Shown piece by piece: positions 6,832 to 32,000 of a stretch of 32,000 nt of DNA (its first letter is position 1; the number at the start of each line of letters is the position of its first letter). Source of the DNA: Xylanibacter ruminicola 23 (GTDB taxonomy: Bacteria > Bacteroidota > Bacteroidia > Bacteroidales > Bacteroidaceae); assembly GCF_000025925.1 (NCBI RefSeq), contig NC_014033.1, forward strand, positions 720,001 through 752,000, written 5' to 3'. A program made the translations under genes and the position numbers. Below the pieces are notes generated by a model. That model saw nothing but the letters and a program-made list of their open reading frames with translations. It did not search any database and had not been told where the DNA came from.

Positions 6832-7539
6832 ATGATGGACGACAAAATTAAGATTTTGCTTTGCGAGGACGACGAGAACCTCGGAATGCTGCTCCGTGAG
6901 TATTTGCAGGCCAAAGGCTTTGTTGCAGAACTCTGTGCTGATGGTGAGGCAGGCTTCAAGGCTTTCCTCAAGACAAAATTCGACATCTGTGTGCTCGATG
7001 TGATGATGCCTAAGAAGGATGGCTTCACACTCGCTCAGGAGATTCGTTCTGCCAACACAGACGTGCCCATTATCTTCCTCACAGCTAAGACCCTGAAGGA
7101 GGATATCCTCGAAGGTTTCAAGCTGGGTGCCGACGATTACATCACCAAGCCTTTCTCAATGGAGGAGCTCGTGTTCCGTATTGAGGCCATTCTGCGCCGC
7201 ACTAAGGGTAAGAAGAGCCGCGAATCTACTGTTTACCGCCTGGGTCAGTTCACTTTCGATACCCAGAAGCAGTTGCTGCAGATTGGCGAGAAGCAGACCA
7301 AGCTTACCACCAAGGAGAACGAGCTGCTGGCTCTGCTCTGCAGTCACTCAAACGAGATTCTGCAGCGCGACTTCGCTCTGAAAACTATCTGGATTGATGA
7401 TAACTACTTCAATGCCCGCTCTATGGATGTTTACATCACTAAGCTGCGCAAGCACCTGAAGGACGATCCACAGATCGAGATTATCAATATTCATGGTAAG
7501 GGCTACAAGCTCATTACTCCTGAGGTAGACGATGAGTAA
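6832..7539 (+). CDS. rprY: OmpR/PhoB-family response regulator (RprY-like)
   Basis: Receiver domain (LLCEDDENLGMLL, DVMMPKKDG, LTAK) plus a C-terminal winged helix (RSMDVYITKLRKHL...HGKGYKL). 235 aa. The symbol is tentative. Confidence 0.85.
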   Translation: MMDDKIKILLCEDDENLGMLLREYLQAKGFVAELCADGEAGFKAFLKTKFDICVLDVMMPKKDGFTLAQEIRSANTDVPIIFLTAKTLKEDILEGFKLGADDYITKPFSMEELVFRIEAILRRTKGKKSRESTVYRLGQFTFDTQKQLLQIGEKQTKLTTKENELLALLCSHSNEILQRDFALKTIWIDDNYFNARSMDVYITKLRKHLKDDPQIEIINIHGKGYKLITPEVDDE

Positions 7540-7735: not shown

Positions 7736-7753
7736 ATATTCTTAAATCATAGG

Positions 7754-7784
7754 GATGTTCAATGGTCAATGGTCAATGTTCAAT
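7754..7784. repeat. Tandem heptamer array A: GATGTTC AATGGTC AATGGTC AATGTTC AAT
   Basis: Direct reading: four 7-nt units. The array ends 8 nt before the shared promoter core of the rpsF operon. Confidence 0.9.
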
Positions 7785-7791
7785 AAAAATT

Positions 7792-7809
7792 TTGTACCTT
7801 TGCACCCGC
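7792..7809 (+). promoter_or_regulatory. rpsF operon promoter core TTGTACCTTTGCACCCGC (-7 box TACCTTTG at 7795-7802)
   Basis: TAnnTTTG match 46 nt upstream of the rpsF ATG. The 18-mer is identical to the one upstream of the 16S rRNA gene (30405-30422). Confidence 0.7.
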
Positions 7810-7848
7810 TTTAAGCAATAACATTATTAATTTATTTTATTAAGTAGT

Positions 7849-8193
7849 ATGAATCAATACGAAACCGTTTTCATTTTAACTCCCGTTTTGTCTGATGAAC
7901 AGATGAAGGAAACGGCCGCAAAATTCAAGAAGGTTCTCACCGATAAGGGTGCAGAGATCATCAACGAAGAGGCCTGGGGATTGAAGAAGATGGCTTATGC
8001 TATTCAGAAGAAGTCTACAGGTTTCTACTGCCTGGTAGAGTTCAAGGCTGAGCCAGAAGTGATTAAGACATTGGAGACTGCTTTCCGTCGTGACGAGAAG
8101 GTAATTCGTTTCCAGACTGTTAAACTTGACAAGTATGCAGTTGAGTACGCCGAGAAGCGTCGTGCAAAGCTTGGTAAAAAAGAGGAGGCTTAA
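7849..8193 (+). CDS. rpsF: 30S ribosomal protein S6 (bS6)
   Basis: [12 protein letters not shown]... is a typical S6 N-terminus. 114 aa and first gene of the conserved rpsF-rpsR-rplI arrangement. Confidence 0.95.
8179..8188 (+). promoter_or_regulatory. Shine-Dalgarno-like decamer AAAGAGGAGG, 8 nt upstream of the rpsR ATG
   Basis: Direct reading. It lies within the last rpsF codons (KKEEA). The AGGAGG core is perfectly complementary to the canonical anti-SD CCUCCU. Confidence 0.6.
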
Positions 8194-8196
8194 ACT

Positions 8197-8463
8197 ATGG
8201 CAGAACAGAGTGAAATCCGTTATTTGACAGCTCCTTCTATCGACACAAAGAAGAAGAAGTATTGCCGTTTCAAGAAGAGCGGTATCAAGTACATCGACTA
8301 CAAGGATCCCGAGTTCCTGAAGAAGTTCCTCAACGAGCAGGGTAAGATTCTTCCCCGCCGTATCACTGGAACATCTCTGAAGTATCAGCGTCGTGTGGCT
8401 CAGGCCGTTAAGCGTGCCCGCCAGATCGCACTGCTGCCTTACGTAACCGATTTGATGAAATAA
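8197..8463 (+). CDS. rpsR: 30S ribosomal protein S18 (bS18)
   Basis: The sequence [20 protein letters not shown]...[10 protein letters not shown]...[12 protein letters not shown] is typical of S18. 88 aa. Confidence 0.95.
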
Positions 8464-8465
8464 TT

Positions 8466-8475
8466 AAAGAGGAGG
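8466..8475 (+). promoter_or_regulatory. Shine-Dalgarno-like decamer AAAGAGGAGG, 10 nt upstream of the rplI ATG
   Basis: Direct reading. Identical to the decamer at 8179-8188. Confidence 0.6.
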
Positions 8476-8485
8476 ACGCAAGATT

Positions 8486-9076
8486 ATGGAAATTATACTG
8501 AAAGAAGATATTATCGGTCTGGGATTCAAGAACGATATCGTGAATGTAAAGTCTGGCTATGGCCGTAACTACCTCATCCCTCAGGGAAAGGGTGTTATTG
8601 CTAGCCCTTCAGCTAAGAAGATTCTCGCAGAGAACCTGAAGCAGCAGGCTCACAAGCTGGCTGCCCTCAAGGCTGCTGCCGAGGAGAAGGCTGCTCAGCT
8701 CAATGGTGTAGTTGTAGAGGTTGCCGCTAAGGTAAGCGTAACTGGCCAGCTCTATGGTTCAGTTGGTGCTGCTCAGGTTGCCGACGAGCTCGCTAAGCTG
8801 GGTAAGGAGGTTGATCGCAAGATCATCACCATGAAGGATGCCAAGAAGGTTGGCGACTATGTAGCTCTGGTACACTTCCACAAGGAGGTTATCGTTGAGC
8901 TCCCTGTAAAGGTAGTTGCTGAGAATGCTGCTGAGCTGCAGGCTGCTGCTGATGCTGAGGCTGCCATCAAGGCTGCTGCTGATGCAAAGAAGGCTGCTGC
9001 TAACGAGGCAGAGGCTGCTGAGGCTGCCGACGAGGCTGAGGCTCTCGAGGCAATCGATGCTCCTGCTGAGGCATAA
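8486..9076 (+). CDS. rplI: 50S ribosomal protein L9 (bL9) with a C-terminal Ala/Glu-rich extension of about 50 aa
   Basis: The N-terminus MEIILKEDIIGLGFKNDIVNVKSGYGRNYLIPQGK is typical of L9. The canonical body ends near aa 146, and residues 147-196 are low-complexity A/E/D/K. Confidence 0.93.
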   Translation: MEIILKEDIIGLGFKNDIVNVKSGYGRNYLIPQGKGVIASPSAKKILAENLKQQAHKLAALKAAAEEKAAQLNGVVVEVAAKVSVTGQLYGSVGAAQVADELAKLGKEVDRKIITMKDAKKVGDYVALVHFHKEVIVELPVKVVAENAAELQAAADAEAAIKAAADAKKAAANEAEAAEAADEAEALEAIDAPAEA

Positions 9077-9144
9077 CTTAAAAAGATTAAATCATAACAA
9101 TTAATAACATGCTGTAAGGCATCATTATTTATTATGACACAGCG

Positions 9145-9172
9145 TCCCGAGGGTTCTCCCTCGGGATTTTTT
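9145..9172 (+). terminator. Rho-independent terminator of the rpsF-rpsR-rplI operon
   Basis: 9-bp stem TCCCGAGGG / CCCTCGGGA with loop TTCT, followed by T6. Confidence 0.85.
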
Positions 9173-9216
9173 GTGCCAAATAATGTAAAAGCCTTGCTTA
9201 ACTGCCCGAAAGTGCT

Positions 9217-12260: not shown

Positions 12261-12803
12261 ATGAGGAGATTCTTATTTTTAGCGTTTGGTGCGTTTGTGA
12301 TTTTTATGGTATATATGTCGAACTGTGGTGGATGTAATGACCGTCCGTTGGCCGAGAAGCTGGAGCGGGCGATGACGCAGACACGGCTGGTGACTTATCA
12401 CGATGATGATTACGATTACACCATTAAATACCCGATGTTTTTTGAACCTTCCGACGATTCGCTGATGGAGAAAGGTAGCTGTAGGTTCAGCTTCTGGCAG
12501 GACAGCATCGAGATTGTGCTGGCGGCCTTTGTGCAACGTAATGCCGACTCGCTCAGCGTCGATCAGGCTGCCAACAAATACGCAGCTGAGCTGCATGCCA
12601 CGCACCAGCGCACGGGTAATAACTTCTTTATTCTTTCAGGCTCGCTGCATAGCGACACAGGTCAGATTACCGGGCGCCGCTTTTATGCAAAGTTTGTGCG
12701 TCATCGCAAACTCTGGTTTGTACAAACCCTCACGTATCCCGAAGAATGCGAGCGCGCCATGAGTCGACTGCTTAAAGAGATAGCTGCCTGGCAGGTTTGG
12801 TAA
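12261..12803 (+). CDS. Lipoprotein of unknown function (180 aa)
   Basis: The internal start gives MRRFLFLAFGAFVIFMVYMSNCGGC (signal plus lipobox Cys). The upstream 33 codons of the track ORF contain the promoter box. Confidence 0.6.
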   Translation: MRRFLFLAFGAFVIFMVYMSNCGGCNDRPLAEKLERAMTQTRLVTYHDDDYDYTIKYPMFFEPSDDSLMEKGSCRFSFWQDSIEIVLAAFVQRNADSLSVDQAANKYAAELHATHQRTGNNFFILSGSLHSDTGQITGRRFYAKFVRHRKLWFVQTLTYPEECERAMSRLLKEIAAWQVW

Positions 12804-12858
12804 TCACAAAAAATATTAAATACGTGCAAGTAAGAAGAGTTTTCTCGGAAAGAATGCT

Positions 12859-12866
12859 TACATTTG
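12859..12866 (+). promoter_or_regulatory. -7 box TACATTTG for the outer-membrane barrel gene
   Basis: TAnnTTTG match 29 nt upstream of the ATG at 12896. Confidence 0.55.
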
Positions 12867-12895
12867 CACCGCTAAATTACATAAACATTATATTA

Positions 12896-15163
12896 ATGAA
12901 GAAACTGACATTTCTAACTCTCATGGCATTAGCTTCGGCACATGGAGCTATGGCTCAGACTCAGGCCGACTCGCTCAGAGCCGACAGCATTTTTAAATCG
13001 CTCGAACTACAGGGCGTTGAGGTCGTTAAACAGAAGGCATTGGTCAAGTCGGATATCGACAAGATTACTTATAATATCGAAGATGACCCTGACTCCAAGT
13101 CGAATTCCACTCTCGATATGCTGCGTAAAGTACCGATGGTGACCGTCGACGGCGAAGATAACATCCAGGTAAATGGTTCAAGTTCGTTCAAGGTGTATGT
13201 AAACAGTAAACCTAACCAAATGATGTCGAACAACCCTAAGGAGGTACTTAAAAGTATGCCCGCCAGCAGCATCAAGCGCATCGAGGTAATCACCAATCCC
13301 GGTCCCAAGTACGATGCCGAAGGTGTAGGTGGTATTCTCAATATCATCACTCATGGCAAAAATATCGAGGGATATACCGCTACCTTTAGAGCAAATGTGC
13401 ATAATCAGGGCTTGGGTGCAGGCGCCTATACCACAGTCAAGAGCGGCAAACTCACTATGAGCGCCAACGTTAACTACAACTACAACGATCGTCCACGTGG
13501 CTATTCGGGCAGTACCCGTAAGACCGTCGGTAACATCAGCAATTCATCGTCCGACATCGAGAGTTCAAGCTGGTCGGATTCTCACGGCAACTCTAAGTAT
13601 GGTTCGCTCGAAGCCAGTTACGAGATTGATACCCTTCGCCTGCTTACTGCCTCGTTCGATCTCTATGGTGGAGGCAGCAATGGCGAAGGTGAAAGTTCGC
13701 TTTTGGCCACATCGCCGCTCACGGGCAATCATCTGTACAGCTACAACACGTTTCAGCGTTCAAAGAGCAGCTATGCCTATATCGATGGAGGTATCGACTA
13801 TCAACGCACTTTTTCCGTCGAGGATCGCTTGTTTACGCTGTCGTATAAGATAAGCGCAGAACCTGATGACAACGACTCGTACGTAGATTATGCCGACCTG
13901 CAGGCCGCTGATGGTTGGGAGACATTCCTGCAGCGAATGAAGAACCAGCACAACGATGGCAGCCACAACACCATGGAGCACACGTTCCAGGTGGATTATA
14001 CCACGCCATTCGCCAAGTATCATAATATCGAGATGGGATTAAAGTATATCCTGCGCAACAATACCTCGGAGGATGACCGCTACGAGAGTGATGTCTTCGA
14101 CCGCGATTATTCGTCGCACTATAAGCATCGCAATGATATCATGGCTGCCTATTTGGGGTATGGACTGAAGATCAAGAAGTTTTCTGGTCGCTTAGGACTG
14201 CGCTACGAACATACCCTACAGGATGTGGAGTATAAACTCGGTCGTGGCGATGATTTCACCAAACATTTCAATGATTTCGTGCCATCGGCCAGCATAGGCT
14301 ATAAACTCGGTCAGGCCACCAATCTGCGCCTGGGCTACGATATGCGTATCTACCGTCCGGGCATCTGGTATCTTAATCCATATCTCGACGATTCTACACC
14401 CACCAACATCAATCAGGGAAATCCTAATCTCGACAGCGAGAAAAATCATTCGTTCAACCTCAGTTTCAGCAATTTTACGCCCAAGTTCAATATTAATCTC
14501 GCCTTGCGCTATGGCTTTACTCGTAATAGTATTGAGAATGTGGTAAAGATGATGCCCGACACCAAGATTGCTGGACTTAAGAACCCCACCGGCAAGGATG
14601 TGCTCTACACAAGCTACGAAAACATTGGTCATCGCGAGGGCGTTAACCTGAATGCGTATGTAAACTGGAATGCCAGCAAGAATACCCGTATCTATATGAA
14701 CAGCAGCCTGTCGTATACCGATATGAACGATGGTGGCACGCTGTCGAACTCAGGATGGGAACTCTTTGCCTATGGTGGCGCCCAGCAGACTTTGCCTAAA
14801 GACTGGCGCATCTCGTGCAATATCTATGCTATCACACCTAACGTACGTTTGCAGGGACGTGGCAGCAGCTACAGTAACTATTCGCTTAGCATCCAGAAGT
14901 CGTGGCTCAAAAATCGCCTCAATCTTACGCTGAGTGCCTCAAACTTCCTGAAGAAGTATAAGTATTTCAACTATCATACTACCGATAGTTTCTTCGAGGC
15001 TGCTAACTGGTCGAAGAACCTAAGTCAGACATTCTCGCTCAGCATCAGCTATCGCATAGGTGAGCTGAAGGCCAGCGTTAAAAAGGCCGAACGCTCTATC
15101 ACTAACGATGACGTGAAGGGCGGCGGCGGTTCTAATGGCGGTAGTAATTCTGATTCAAATTAA
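12896..15163 (+). CDS. Outer-membrane beta-barrel family protein with a TonB-dependent-receptor-type plug domain
   Basis: The internal start gives signal peptide MKKLTFLTLMALASAHGAMAQ. Plug-like region DMLRKVPMVTVDGEDNIQVNGSS...IKRIEVITNPGPKYDAEGVGGILNIIT, then a long Y/N/S/G-rich segment with alternating beta-strand character. Gly/Ser/Asn-rich tail. No STN or carboxypeptidase-regulatory N-terminal domain was seen. Confidence 0.7.
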   Translation: MKKLTFLTLMALASAHGAMAQTQADSLRADSIFKSLELQGVEVVKQKALVKSDIDKITYNIEDDPDSKSNSTLDMLRKVPMVTVDGEDNIQVNGSSSFKVYVNSKPNQMMSNNPKEVLKSMPASSIKRIEVITNPGPKYDAEGVGGILNIITHGKNIEGYTATFRANVHNQGLGAGAYTTVKSGKLTMSANVNYNYNDRPRGYSGSTRKTVGNISNSSSDIESSSWSDSHGNSKYGSLEASYEIDTLRLLTASFDLYGGGSNGEGESSLLATSPLTGNHLYSYNTFQRSKSSYAYIDGGIDYQRTFSVEDRLFTLSYKISAEPDDNDSYVDYADLQAADGWETFLQRMKNQHNDGSHNTMEHTFQVDYTTPFAKYHNIEMGLKYILRNNTSEDDRYESDVFDRDYSSHYKHRNDIMAAYLGYGLKIKKFSGRLGLRYEHTLQDVEYKLGRGDDFTKHFNDFVPSASIGYKLGQATNLRLGYDMRIYRPGIWYLNPYLDDSTPTNINQGNPNLDSEKNHSFNLSFSNFTPKFNINLALRYGFTRNSIENVVKMMPDTKIAGLKNPTGKDVLYTSYENIGHREGVNLNAYVNWNASKNTRIYMNSSLSYTDMNDGGTLSNSGWELFAYGGAQQTLPKDWRISCNIYAITPNVRLQGRGSSYSNYSLSIQKSWLKNRLNLTLSASNFLKKYKYFNYHTTDSFFEAANWSKNLSQTFSLSISYRIGELKASVKKAERSITNDDVKGGGGSNGGSNSDSN

Positions 15164-17222: not shown

Positions 17223-18548
17223 ATGATAGATACCTCAGCATTTCAAGGCAAAAAGGCTGCCTATTTTACACTCGGATGTAAGTTGAACTTCTCAGAAACA
17301 TCTACTTTTGGTAAGATGCTTCAGGACCTGGGCGTAAGTACTGCCCAGAAAGGCGAGCAGGCCGACATCTGTTTGATAAACACCTGTTCGGTAACCGAGG
17401 TGGCTGATAAGAAATGTCGTCAGGCCATTCACCGCTTGGTGCGCGAGAATCCCGGCGCCTTTGTGGTGGTAACGGGATGCTATGCCCAGCTCGAGGCCGA
17501 CGAGGTGGCAAAGATCGAGGGTGTAAGTCTGGTGTTAGGCTCTAACGAGAAGGCCAACCTGGTTCAGTTCTTGTCGGATGCCTGGACAGGCGCCCCCACA
17601 GCTAAGTATTATCGTGAGAAAACCAAGGATATCAAATCCTTTGCGCCCAGCTGCTCAAAGGGTAACCGCACGCGCTATTTCCTGAAGGTGCAGGATGGTT
17701 GCGATTACTTCTGCACCTACTGTACCATTCCCTACGCCCGTGGTTTTTCGCGTAACCCAACGATTGCCTCGCTGGTAGCGCAGGCCCAGGAGGCCGCTGC
17801 CGAGGGTGGTAAGGAGATTGTGCTCACCGGTGTGAACATCGGCGACTTTGGTAAGACTACCGGCGAGAAGTTTATCGACCTGGTTAAGGCGCTCGATGGG
17901 GTAGAGGGCATTCAGCGTTACCGCATCAGCTCGCTCGAACCCGATCTGATTTCGGACGAGCTCATCGAGTACTGCGCCAAGAGCCGTGCCTTCATGCCGC
18001 ACTTCCACATCCCCCTGCAGAGTGGTAGCAACACGGTGCTCAAGCTCATGCATCGTCATTACGATCGCGAGCTGTTTGCCGAGAAGATCCACCGTATCAA
18101 GGAGTTGATGCCCGATGCCTTTATCGGCGTGGATGTGATGGTGGGCTGCCGTGGCGAAACACCCGAGTGCTTCGAGGAGACCTACACGTTCCTGGATAGC
18201 CTGGATGTTACTCAGCTGCACGTGTTCCCATACTCCGAGCGCCCAGGCACATCGGCCCTCAGCATCCCATACGTGGTTCCCGAGAAGGAGAAGAAGCAGC
18301 GTGTAAAGCGCCTGCTGGAACTCTCTGATCAGAAAACCCATGCTTTCTACGAGCGTTATATCGGCCAGCAGGCCGAGGTGCTGTTCGAGAAGGCTACCCG
18401 CGGTCGTGCCATGCACGGTTTTACTAAGAACTATATCCGTGTAGAGCTGCCCGCCAAGGATGCTAACCCCGATTTCGACAATCAGCTTATCAGTGTGAAG
18501 CTGGGCGAGATGACCCGCGATAAGGAGTCGTTAATGTGTATTATATAA
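17223..18548 (+). CDS. mtaB: tRNA (t6A37) methylthiotransferase MtaB (radical SAM)
   Basis: The N-terminal UPF0004 domain AAYFTLGCKLNFSE...INTCSVT resembles MtaB/YqeV. Radical SAM motif CDYFCTYCTIP and a C-terminal TRAM-like region. Confidence 0.8.
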   Translation: MIDTSAFQGKKAAYFTLGCKLNFSETSTFGKMLQDLGVSTAQKGEQADICLINTCSVTEVADKKCRQAIHRLVRENPGAFVVVTGCYAQLEADEVAKIEGVSLVLGSNEKANLVQFLSDAWTGAPTAKYYREKTKDIKSFAPSCSKGNRTRYFLKVQDGCDYFCTYCTIPYARGFSRNPTIASLVAQAQEAAAEGGKEIVLTGVNIGDFGKTTGEKFIDLVKALDGVEGIQRYRISSLEPDLISDELIEYCAKSRAFMPHFHIPLQSGSNTVLKLMHRHYDRELFAEKIHRIKELMPDAFIGVDVMVGCRGETPECFEETYTFLDSLDVTQLHVFPYSERPGTSALSIPYVVPEKEKKQRVKRLLELSDQKTHAFYERYIGQQAEVLFEKATRGRAMHGFTKNYIRVELPAKDANPDFDNQLISVKLGEMTRDKESLMCII

Positions 18549-26363: not shown

Positions 26364-26387
26364 TGTTTTGTTTATTGGGGAAAATTT

Positions 26388-26415
26388 AATGTTTCATGTT
26401 TAATGTTTAATGTAT
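26388..26415. repeat. Tandem heptamer array C: AATGTTT CATGTTT AATGTTT AATGTAT
   Basis: Direct reading: four 7-nt units immediately 3' of the pyrI stop in mRNA sense, and 24 nt upstream of the glyA ATG. Confidence 0.85.
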
Positions 26416-26861: not shown

Positions 26862-26893
26862 AATGTTCAATGTTCAATGTTCAATGTTCAATG
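26862..26893. repeat. Tandem heptamer array B: (AATGTTC)x4 perfect copies plus AATG; it fills the whole pyrB-pyrI spacer
   Basis: Direct reading. Units are at 26862, 26869, 26876 and 26883. The pyrB stop (26888-26890) lies in the last unit, and the pyrI start codon ends at 26861. Confidence 0.95.
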
Positions 26894-30521: not shown

Positions 30522-30620
30522 TGGGTAAATGAACAAACCGTTTCAATTTCTTGAATTTGGATAGTTGTTCTGAGACAGATACATTTCTATTTTAAATAGA
30601 ATAAACAAACAATTTTTTAC

Positions 30621-32000
<1,380 letters not shown>

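Follow-up and report, generated by a model that had tools for sequence, protein, structure and literature searches.

Why should a bacterium whose genes mostly do without a Shine-Dalgarno (SD) sequence carry one twice over within a single short ribosomal protein locus? The question is raised by rpsF, rpsR and rplI (encoding bS6, bS18 and bL9, respectively) of Xylanibacter ruminicola 23, which lie in a 32,000-nucleotide stretch of contig NC_014033.1 (assembly GCF_000025925.1, positions 720,001 to 752,000 of the forward strand; hereafter the window). A first-pass annotation of this stretch had noted that an identical SD-like decamer, AAAGAGGAGG, precedes only rpsR and rplI in an otherwise SD-less gene set, and had suggested that ribosomes short of bS18 or bS6 would preferentially translate these two genes. 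Comparison with the genome's own 16S rRNA indicates that both decamers are genuine SD elements, complementary to the anti-SD of the organism in which they occur and presumably acting in translation. Both the pattern and the feedback model that explains it have been known since 2021 (Jha et al., NAR 2021, PMC7797042); thus the window is one more example of a described phenomenon and provides no new lead.

Examination of the pairing potential of the decamers required the 3' tail of the 16S rRNA, the gene for which is truncated by the window end. The part bearing the anti-SD, which lies ~155 nt past that end, was read from the assembly GCA_019973335.1 (L001; at ~8197-8212), taken to be the same genome on the basis of an exact match to the PBP1A protein of the window. 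The tail, ...ACACCUCCUUUCU (read in L001 as ...GGCTGGAACACCTCCTTTCT), has in L001 the 3' end ...GGCUGGAACACCUCCUUUCU, which is the canonical anti-SD. Bases 8181-8188 (AGAGGAGG) can form eight contiguous pairs with the tail segment CCUCCUUU, one of them a G-U pair, and the identical 8-pair duplex is formed by the copy before rplI, with an energy of -12.3 kcal/mol for both. Two mismatches bar a longer helix at rpsR, A-C at position 8180 and C/A-A on the 3' side of the core. The gaps to the start codons, 8 nt for rpsR and 10 nt for rplI, lie within the ~5-10 nt expected of an SD, and the coordinates and spacings reported by the first-pass annotation proved exact. The duplex energy is also in keeping with the -7 to -14 kcal/mol (mode -11 kcal/mol) found for rpsR SDs by McNutt et al. 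2023 (PMC9976891), and the value therefore fits. Upstream of rpsF the energy is +0.1 kcal/mol in one scoring and -0.8 kcal/mol in another, and there is no SD.

To survey the rest of the window, each candidate in-frame start within the initial part of 29 open reading frames (ORFs) was given a duplex energy for pairing of its -22 to -3 region with the 16S tail. None of the remaining plausible starts of the ~29 genes approaches -12.3 kcal/mol: most are weaker than -5.5 kcal/mol (mostly +2 to -5) and show no SD feature, and the next best plausible starts reach -8.6 and -7.0 kcal/mol. Within the window, therefore, the gene set is indeed otherwise SD-less, and the nearest exceptions are as originally described, namely an AGAGGA 1 nt from the PBP1A ATG and a GAGGT before the small ORF at 7532. 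A borderline third SD candidate is the AAGGAG at 18522-18527, 8 nt from the GTG (18536) of a family-2 glycosyltransferase gene; the alternative ATG of this gene, which shares bases with the preceding stop codon (TAATG), lacks an SD. Another match, TAAGGAGGT at 13237-13245, 11 nt before an in-frame ATG (13256), was rejected as a start signal because it is internal to coding sequence, inside the Plug domain (residues 95-180) of a TonB-dependent-receptor-like ORF (12797-15163), and it is probably a chance match. The decamer itself has just two copies in the window on both strands, even with one mismatch allowed. This copy number is unremarkable, as shuffled sequences yield 1.9 one-mismatch matches; what stands out is the placement. 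GGAGG occurs 34 times per 64,000 strand positions (the window, both strands), and the expected number of gene pairs, among 29 genes, in which both members have it at SD distance is ~0.007. As a separate observation, the pentamer is depleted on both strands of the window (34 versus 50.6 +/- 6.9 in dinucleotide shuffles, 100/100 of which have at least 34), so that pentamers resembling an SD are slightly avoided by a bacterium presumed to be blind to SDs.

A single bS18 scan across species-representative genomes recovered 80 Bacteroidales loci with 78-100% bS18 identity, belonging to Prevotella, Bacteroidaceae, Muribaculaceae, Rikenellaceae, Paludibacteraceae, Dysgonomonadaceae and Anaerophaga, in a sample rich in metagenome-assembled genomes (MAGs) of Muribaculaceae. 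The three genes were located in them by tblastn, an SD was called strong at <= -9 kcal/mol, and the window was counted with these loci (n=81); its genome finds its closest relatives in Prevotella/Prevotellaceae. A strong SD precedes rpsR in 72/81 loci and rplI in 38/80, with spacings of 7-10 nt and 6-10 nt, respectively, in the relatives, and it precedes rpsF in 0/76. By way of background, a mock window placed inside rpsF contains a strong SD in 2/81 loci, and flanking ORFs of at least 150 aa have a strong SD in 9/137 and GGAGG in 2/137 cases, figures that are approximate because the first ATG was taken as the start of each flanking ORF. Relative to the flanking ORFs the Fisher p values are 6e-37 for rpsR and 3e-12 for rplI. 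Thus the motif is conserved at these junctions and SDs are rare elsewhere, both at window starts and in flanking ORFs; the sequence comparisons by which the first-pass annotation proposed to challenge its own idea leave it standing.

The rplI SD tracks lineage: it is found in 26 of the 28 Prevotella-like loci (bS18 identity at least 90%) versus 12 of the 52 more distant ones, and is kept in the former while the rpsR-rplI spacers are otherwise divergent (7-48 nt). Identity over the full decamer, correctly noted for this genome, is not conserved, for the closest relative (L003, with 100% bS18 identity) has AAAGGAGG before rplI. As identity is lost in the nearest relatives, derivation of the two copies by duplication, or from a shared longer motif, was rejected and their sameness here is incidental.

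A multiple sequence comparison of the rpsF-rpsR junction further distinguishes constraint on the RNA from constraint on the protein. The rpsR SD of the window is housed in the last codons of rpsF (aaa gag gag gct taa, with the stop at 8191-8193). Across the sample, a GGAGG core is located 7-10 nt from the rpsR ATG in 66 loci. It lies within rpsF codons in 52 of them, always in the frame xxG-GAG-Gxx, which gives bS6 the terminus K/E-E-A/D, the residues ahead of this tripeptide varying freely; in the other 14 loci, where rpsF stops 13-22 nt sooner, the core is found in non-coding spacer, its distance from the ATG unchanged. An alignment of 48 sequences is at least 90% conserved in the SD columns and the start region only, with the flanking rpsF columns below 70%. 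Because the core keeps a constant distance whether it is coding or non-coding, selection acts on the RNA; judged by these alignments, the constraint is at the RNA level and the C-terminal tripeptide of bS6 is a by-product. Conservation of the rpsR SD hence exceeds the background and is independent of the overlapping coding sequence, so that the check called for by the first-pass annotation favours a real SD. The invariance of distance across coding and non-coding contexts and the imprint on the last three residues of bS6 go beyond the main texts, supplements aside, of PMC7797042, PMC9976891 and PMC13000457; along with the lineage pattern of the rplI SD they are minor increments, drawn from genome comparison.

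A conserved RNA structure at the rpsR start was also considered and rejected, as the single-sequence fold is unexceptional (z = 0.39 versus shuffles) and RNAalifold, applied to 48 diverse loci, returned 0 conserved pairs around this start. In the single-sequence minimum free energy fold the rpsR SD pairs with the anti-SD-like segment GCUCCUUCU (8228-8236, rpsR codons 11-13). A CCUCCU is seen at the same position of rpsR in several distant lineages, and the likeness to an anti-SD may merely reflect Ala/Pro-Pro codons.

These results parallel those of Jha et al., who screened all ribosomal protein (r-protein) genes of 293 Bacteroidetes. In the class Bacteroidia (n=104) the fraction of genes with a strong SD was 0.660 for rpsR, 0.825 for rplI, 0 for both rpsF and rpsU, and 0.017 for all genes (Table 1 of PMC7797042). 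As that study also found SDs at rplE, rplF, rplW, rpmA, rpmD and rpsK in many Bacteroidia, the notion that only rpsR and rplI carry SDs is true of the 32-kb window and not of the class. Furthermore, Jha et al., who cite bS18 as non-essential in Porphyromonas gingivalis, already proposed its autoregulation through bS18-depleted ribosomes with a freed anti-SD (PMC7797042); the first-pass annotation, which was not aware of a description of such feedback for rpsR, is to be corrected on this point. The pattern and the rpsR proposal were restated by McNutt et al. 2023 (PMC9976891), who count rplI among the SD genes and take the shorter SDs to imply a control unlike that of rpsU, and again in 2026 (PMC13000457). 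The window shares with the published Bacteroidia pattern the genes, the bacterial order, the element and the proposed mechanism; the proportions in the Muribaculaceae-MAG-rich sample used here (rpsR 72/81, rplI 38/80) differ from the published ones, with no difference in kind.

The layout of the locus (Table) suggests that rpsF, rpsR and rplI are most likely a single transcript. The sequence TAnnTTTG is the -7 promoter element of Bacteroides and other Bacteroidetes. Its match TACCTTTG, 47 nt 5' of the rpsF ATG, is likely the promoter of this transcript, and the GC-rich hairpin with a T run found 68 nt 3' of the rplI stop is likely the operon end, although the latter is a consensus match only, with 1.4 sites of this kind arising in shuffled versions of the region. 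No copy of TAnnTTTG is present between 7803 and 9216, and hence none inside the three genes (rpsR extends from the ATG at 8197 to the stop at 8461-8463). With a promoter-like motif 5' of rpsF, none within the genes and a terminator-like hairpin 3' of rplI, one transcript is the most likely arrangement. The window as a whole has 38 matches to TAnnTTTG versus 15.9 expected (>2-fold; 0/100 shuffles reach 38), and their occurrence 5' of many genes fits window-wide use of Bacteroidetes-type promoters.

Some further features of the region were observed. In bL9 the L9_C domain (residues 63-145) is followed by an Ala/Glu-rich low-complexity C-terminal tail of ~50 aa, encoded (~8925-9073) by imperfect 18- and 27-nt repeats; the bL9 proteins of relatives align only to about residues 132-153, implying that the tail is lineage-variable. 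Just 5' of the rpsF promoter-like motif is an intergenic tandem array of heptamers (ATGGTCA/ATGTTCA x4.3, 7755-7784). Its core TGTTCAAT is common to a perfect heptamer array (AATGTTC x4.6, 26862-26893) at the pyrB-pyrI junction, which reaches the pyrI ATG (26861, - strand), and a third array (TTTAATG x4.1, 26385-26413) occurs after pyrI.

Table. Coordinates of the ribosomal protein locus and of other features of the window that bear on initiation
Feature	Position	Strand	Details
-7 promoter motif match TACCTTTG	7795..7802	+	TAnnTTTG
rpsF (bS6, 114 aa)	7849..8193	+	Pfam Ribosomal_S6, E 1.6e-31
rpsR SD AAAGAGGAGG	8179..8188	+	in last rpsF codons
rpsR (bS18, 88 aa)	8197..8463	+	Pfam Ribosomal_S18, E 9.3e-27
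rplI SD AAAGAGGAGG	8466..8475	+	in 22-nt rpsR-rplI spacer
rplI (bL9, 196 aa)	8486..9076	+	Pfam L9_N and L9_C
terminator-like GC-rich hairpin and T run	9144..9177	+	
16S rRNA gene, truncated by window end	30619..32000	+	Rfam RF00177, 1303 bits; model positions 1-1376 of 1533
small ORF start	ATG 7532		GAGGT, -7.0 kcal/mol
glycosyltransferase start	GTG 18536		AAGGAG, -8.6 kcal/mol; start uncertain, perhaps ATG 18548
start	ATG 20887		non-canonical GGGGG run, -8.6 kcal/mol

What, then, might the two SDs do? The anti-SD of Bacteroidia is normally buried in a pocket of the 30S platform formed by bS21, bS18 and bS6, and so ordinary genes of these organisms do without an SD. Under the proposal of Jha et al., both SDs of the locus are functional and, via a bS18 feedback, make the translation of rpsR and rplI depend on the pool of 30S subunits with a free anti-SD; this is the best-supported of the readings, and we hold it to be an evenly balanced proposition. 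Translation of rpsR and the co-transcribed rplI would be tied to the number of such subunits, which would be those lacking bS18/bS6, and hence probably bS21, or late assembly intermediates. By pairing with the SD these subunits would gain in speed of initiation on rpsR, until newly made bS18 completes the pocket and switches the advantage off, thereby closing a negative feedback loop. Such feedback of bS18/bS6 shortage on rpsR and rplI, of the type demonstrated for rpsU, is plausible. Its two component steps are inferences: translation would be driven by SD pairing, and the occupancy of bS18 would govern this pairing-dependent translation.

Consistent with this proposal, the window bS18 has all seven of the pocket residues (Y22, R24, K27, S28, I30, F40 and N46), corresponding to Y32, R34, K37, S38, I40, F50 and N56, which were mutated to open the pocket in bS18 of Flavobacterium johnsoniae (PMC13000457). 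These residues are conserved across the loci. The regulated gene encodes a pocket protein (bS21, bS18 or bS6) in the case of rpsR, but not in that of rplI, as bL9 belongs to the 50S subunit. At position 28 (S38 of F. johnsoniae) nearly all SD-bearing loci have S, A or N, with L and F in L063 and L066. Three loci lacking the rpsR SD have L or M here (L078, L081 and L082), a weak hint from too small a sample, and other such loci retain S (L039, L043, L055, L057 and L068). The idea that a pocket residue changes where the rpsR SD is lost was accordingly dropped, there being too few loci and five SD-less ones that keep S.

The closest established parallel is rpsU of F. johnsoniae, the autoregulation of which by bS21-lacking ribosomes has been shown genetically, biochemically and structurally (PMC9976891, PMC13000457, PMC13000453). 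As in that system, the rpsR SD stands before a gene for an anti-SD-burying protein in an otherwise SD-less lineage, and the predicted logic is likewise one of specialised, protein-deficient ribosomes. The two cases differ in three respects: 1) rpsU has an extended SD (9-13 pairs, -14 to -21 kcal/mol) that keeps bS21 out by steric hindrance, whereas the elements here, with 8 pairs and -12.3 kcal/mol, fall short of a helix able to displace bS21 (at least 9-10 pairs, below -13 kcal/mol); 2) rpsU is essentially the sole SD gene of its genome, whereas here rplI has an SD besides rpsR; 3) the rpsU loop is experimentally proven, whereas the rpsR loop is a proposal.

A second parallel is S6S18CBM, the leader of the rpsF operon that binds S6:S18 and is known from E. 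coli and B. subtilis (Matelska 2013, PMC3854524; Fu 2014, PMC3895269; Babina 2015, PMC4647458). It is a hairpin of the 5' untranslated region (UTR) in which a CCG/CCR bulge imitates the 16S site, and binding of the free protein complex blocks the rpsF SD. It acts in the same operon and to the same end, feedback on bS6/bS18 synthesis. S6S18CBM is missing in Chlorobi, and its absence correlates with a position of rpsR directly after rpsF (PMC3854524), as is also found here. However, S6S18CBM is a structured leader of rpsF, whereas the conserved elements of the present locus are SDs at internal cistrons. The rpsF 5' region (7736-7848) has no Rfam match at E <= 10 (the inclusion of S6S18CBM in Rfam 15 was not confirmed), and the rpsF 5' UTR is short and AT-rich, its fold (-6.6 kcal/mol, z = 0.22) being no more stable than those of shuffles. 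With neither a stable fold nor an Rfam match nor an rpsF SD, an r-protein leader of this type is not evident.

Several observations weigh against bS18 feedback. The platform takes up bS6 and bS18 together, as a heterodimer, at an early stage of its assembly; rpsF, which encodes the heterodimer partner, has no SD, and active 30S subunits without bS18 may not exist in useful numbers. The SD is short, with 8 pairs versus the 13-pair rpsU helix that sterically displaces bS21. Beyond lineage, the rpsR and rplI SDs show no significant co-occurrence across loci (p = 0.27). The same SD precedes the gene for bL9, a 50S protein outside the pocket, and SDs are also found in Bacteroidia at rplE, rplF, rplW, rpmA and rpmD (PMC7797042); because SDs occur at bL9 and other 50S genes, autoregulation specific to bS18 cannot be the whole story. 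Finally, a paper of March 2026 terms the rpsR feedback "still unproven" (PMC13000457), and a literature search found no direct experimental test of it in Bacteroides, Prevotella or Porphyromonas.

That the SDs are ordinary ones, used constitutively or for translational coupling and free of any feedback, is a tentative alternative to which we give less credence. The 16S tail of Bacteroidales would be held less tightly than that of Flavobacterium, and a moderate SD would boost initiation or re-initiation on replete ribosomes, giving a high and matched output of promoter-distal r-protein cistrons. Both rpsR and rplI are indeed internal cistrons, at which ribosomes have just terminated 3 nt (rpsF stop) and 22 nt (rpsR stop) ahead of the respective ATG, and rpsF, which comes first, never has an SD. 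In keeping with this, many of the SD genes of Bacteroidia are internal in r-protein operons (rplE, rplF, rplW, rpmD), and SD genes are ~8-fold commoner in this class than in Flavobacteriia (1.7% versus 0.2%; PMC7797042). The location of bL9 outside the pocket points the same way, and the 70S structure of P. gingivalis includes only an incomplete model of the 3' end of 16S rRNA ("poor EM density"), compatible with a more mobile tail. The pocket proteins of P. gingivalis nevertheless resemble those of F. johnsoniae, and the literature, including PMC13000457, holds Bacteroidia ribosomes to be SD-blind in vivo and in vitro. Moreover, coupling per se appears to need no SD: GGAGG is absent at the nine other tight or overlapping same-strand junctions of the window (692, 7532, 10532, 11175/11181, 12162, 12797, 15681(-), 18536/18548 and 26861(-)), two of which are borderline by duplex energy, and most internal r-protein genes score 0 in Table 1 of Jha et al. 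(PMC7797042).

A broader view, which Jha et al. 2021 (PMC7797042) anticipated in their discussion and which is in our estimate rather unlikely, is that the Bacteroidales are not truly SD-blind, but have a loosely held 16S tail and short 8-pair SDs that work on a sizeable ribosome pool, with rpsR, rplI and a few further r-protein cistrons making up a lineage-specific regulon governed by anti-SD availability. The rules of such a regulon (a short SD, internal cistrons, and bS18/bS6 instead of bS21 as the sensor) may then be unlike those of the Flavobacterium rpsU switch, and the contrast in the rplI SD between Prevotella-like (26/28) and distant (12/52) loci may mark where the regulon expanded.

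It is decidedly unlikely, in our view, that the role of sensor falls to bS21, or to the immaturity of 30S subunits in general, and not to bS18. The SD-bearing r-protein genes (rpsR, rplI, rplE, rplF and others) would in that case form a small regulon read by late, bS21-less intermediates, matching supply to assembly flux. It speaks for this that bS21 binds last, is exchangeable and is the pocket protein for which gating of the anti-SD has been demonstrated in F. johnsoniae (PMC9976891, PMC13000457), and that r-protein genes of both subunits carry SDs (PMC7797042). On the other hand, rpsU of Bacteroidales has no SD (0/104; PMC7797042), placing bS21 outside the same loop, and rpsR is among the most consistent of the SD genes (72/81 here; 0.66 versus 0.825 for rplI in Jha et al.), suggesting a special link to bS18. 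Scarcely credible, lastly, is the absence of any translational role, with the rpsR motif a codon by-product of a conserved bS6 C-terminus and the motif before rplI due either to a spacer that happens to be rich in purines or to local duplication: the rpsR motif does sit in rpsF codons, in one frame whenever coding, and the two decamers are identical here, but this reading is effectively refuted by the non-coding persistence of GGAGG at 7-10 nt from the rpsR ATG in 14 loci and by a bS6 C-terminus that varies freely save for the three SD-encoded residues, while retention of the rplI SD amid divergent spacers in 26/28 Prevotella-like loci opposes chance and the loss of decamer identity in the closest relative makes duplication unneeded.

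The main value of the present check is that it keeps a known feature from being counted as a discovery. The bS18 feedback question is worth testing, yet it has already been posed explicitly by the field. If true, the feedback would be at work in the dominant bacterial order of the human and rumen gut, and would have a bearing on expression design in Bacteroides and Prevotella. It would also provide a second natural example of specialised ribosomes in bacteria, distinct in their protein composition and in control of their own completion.

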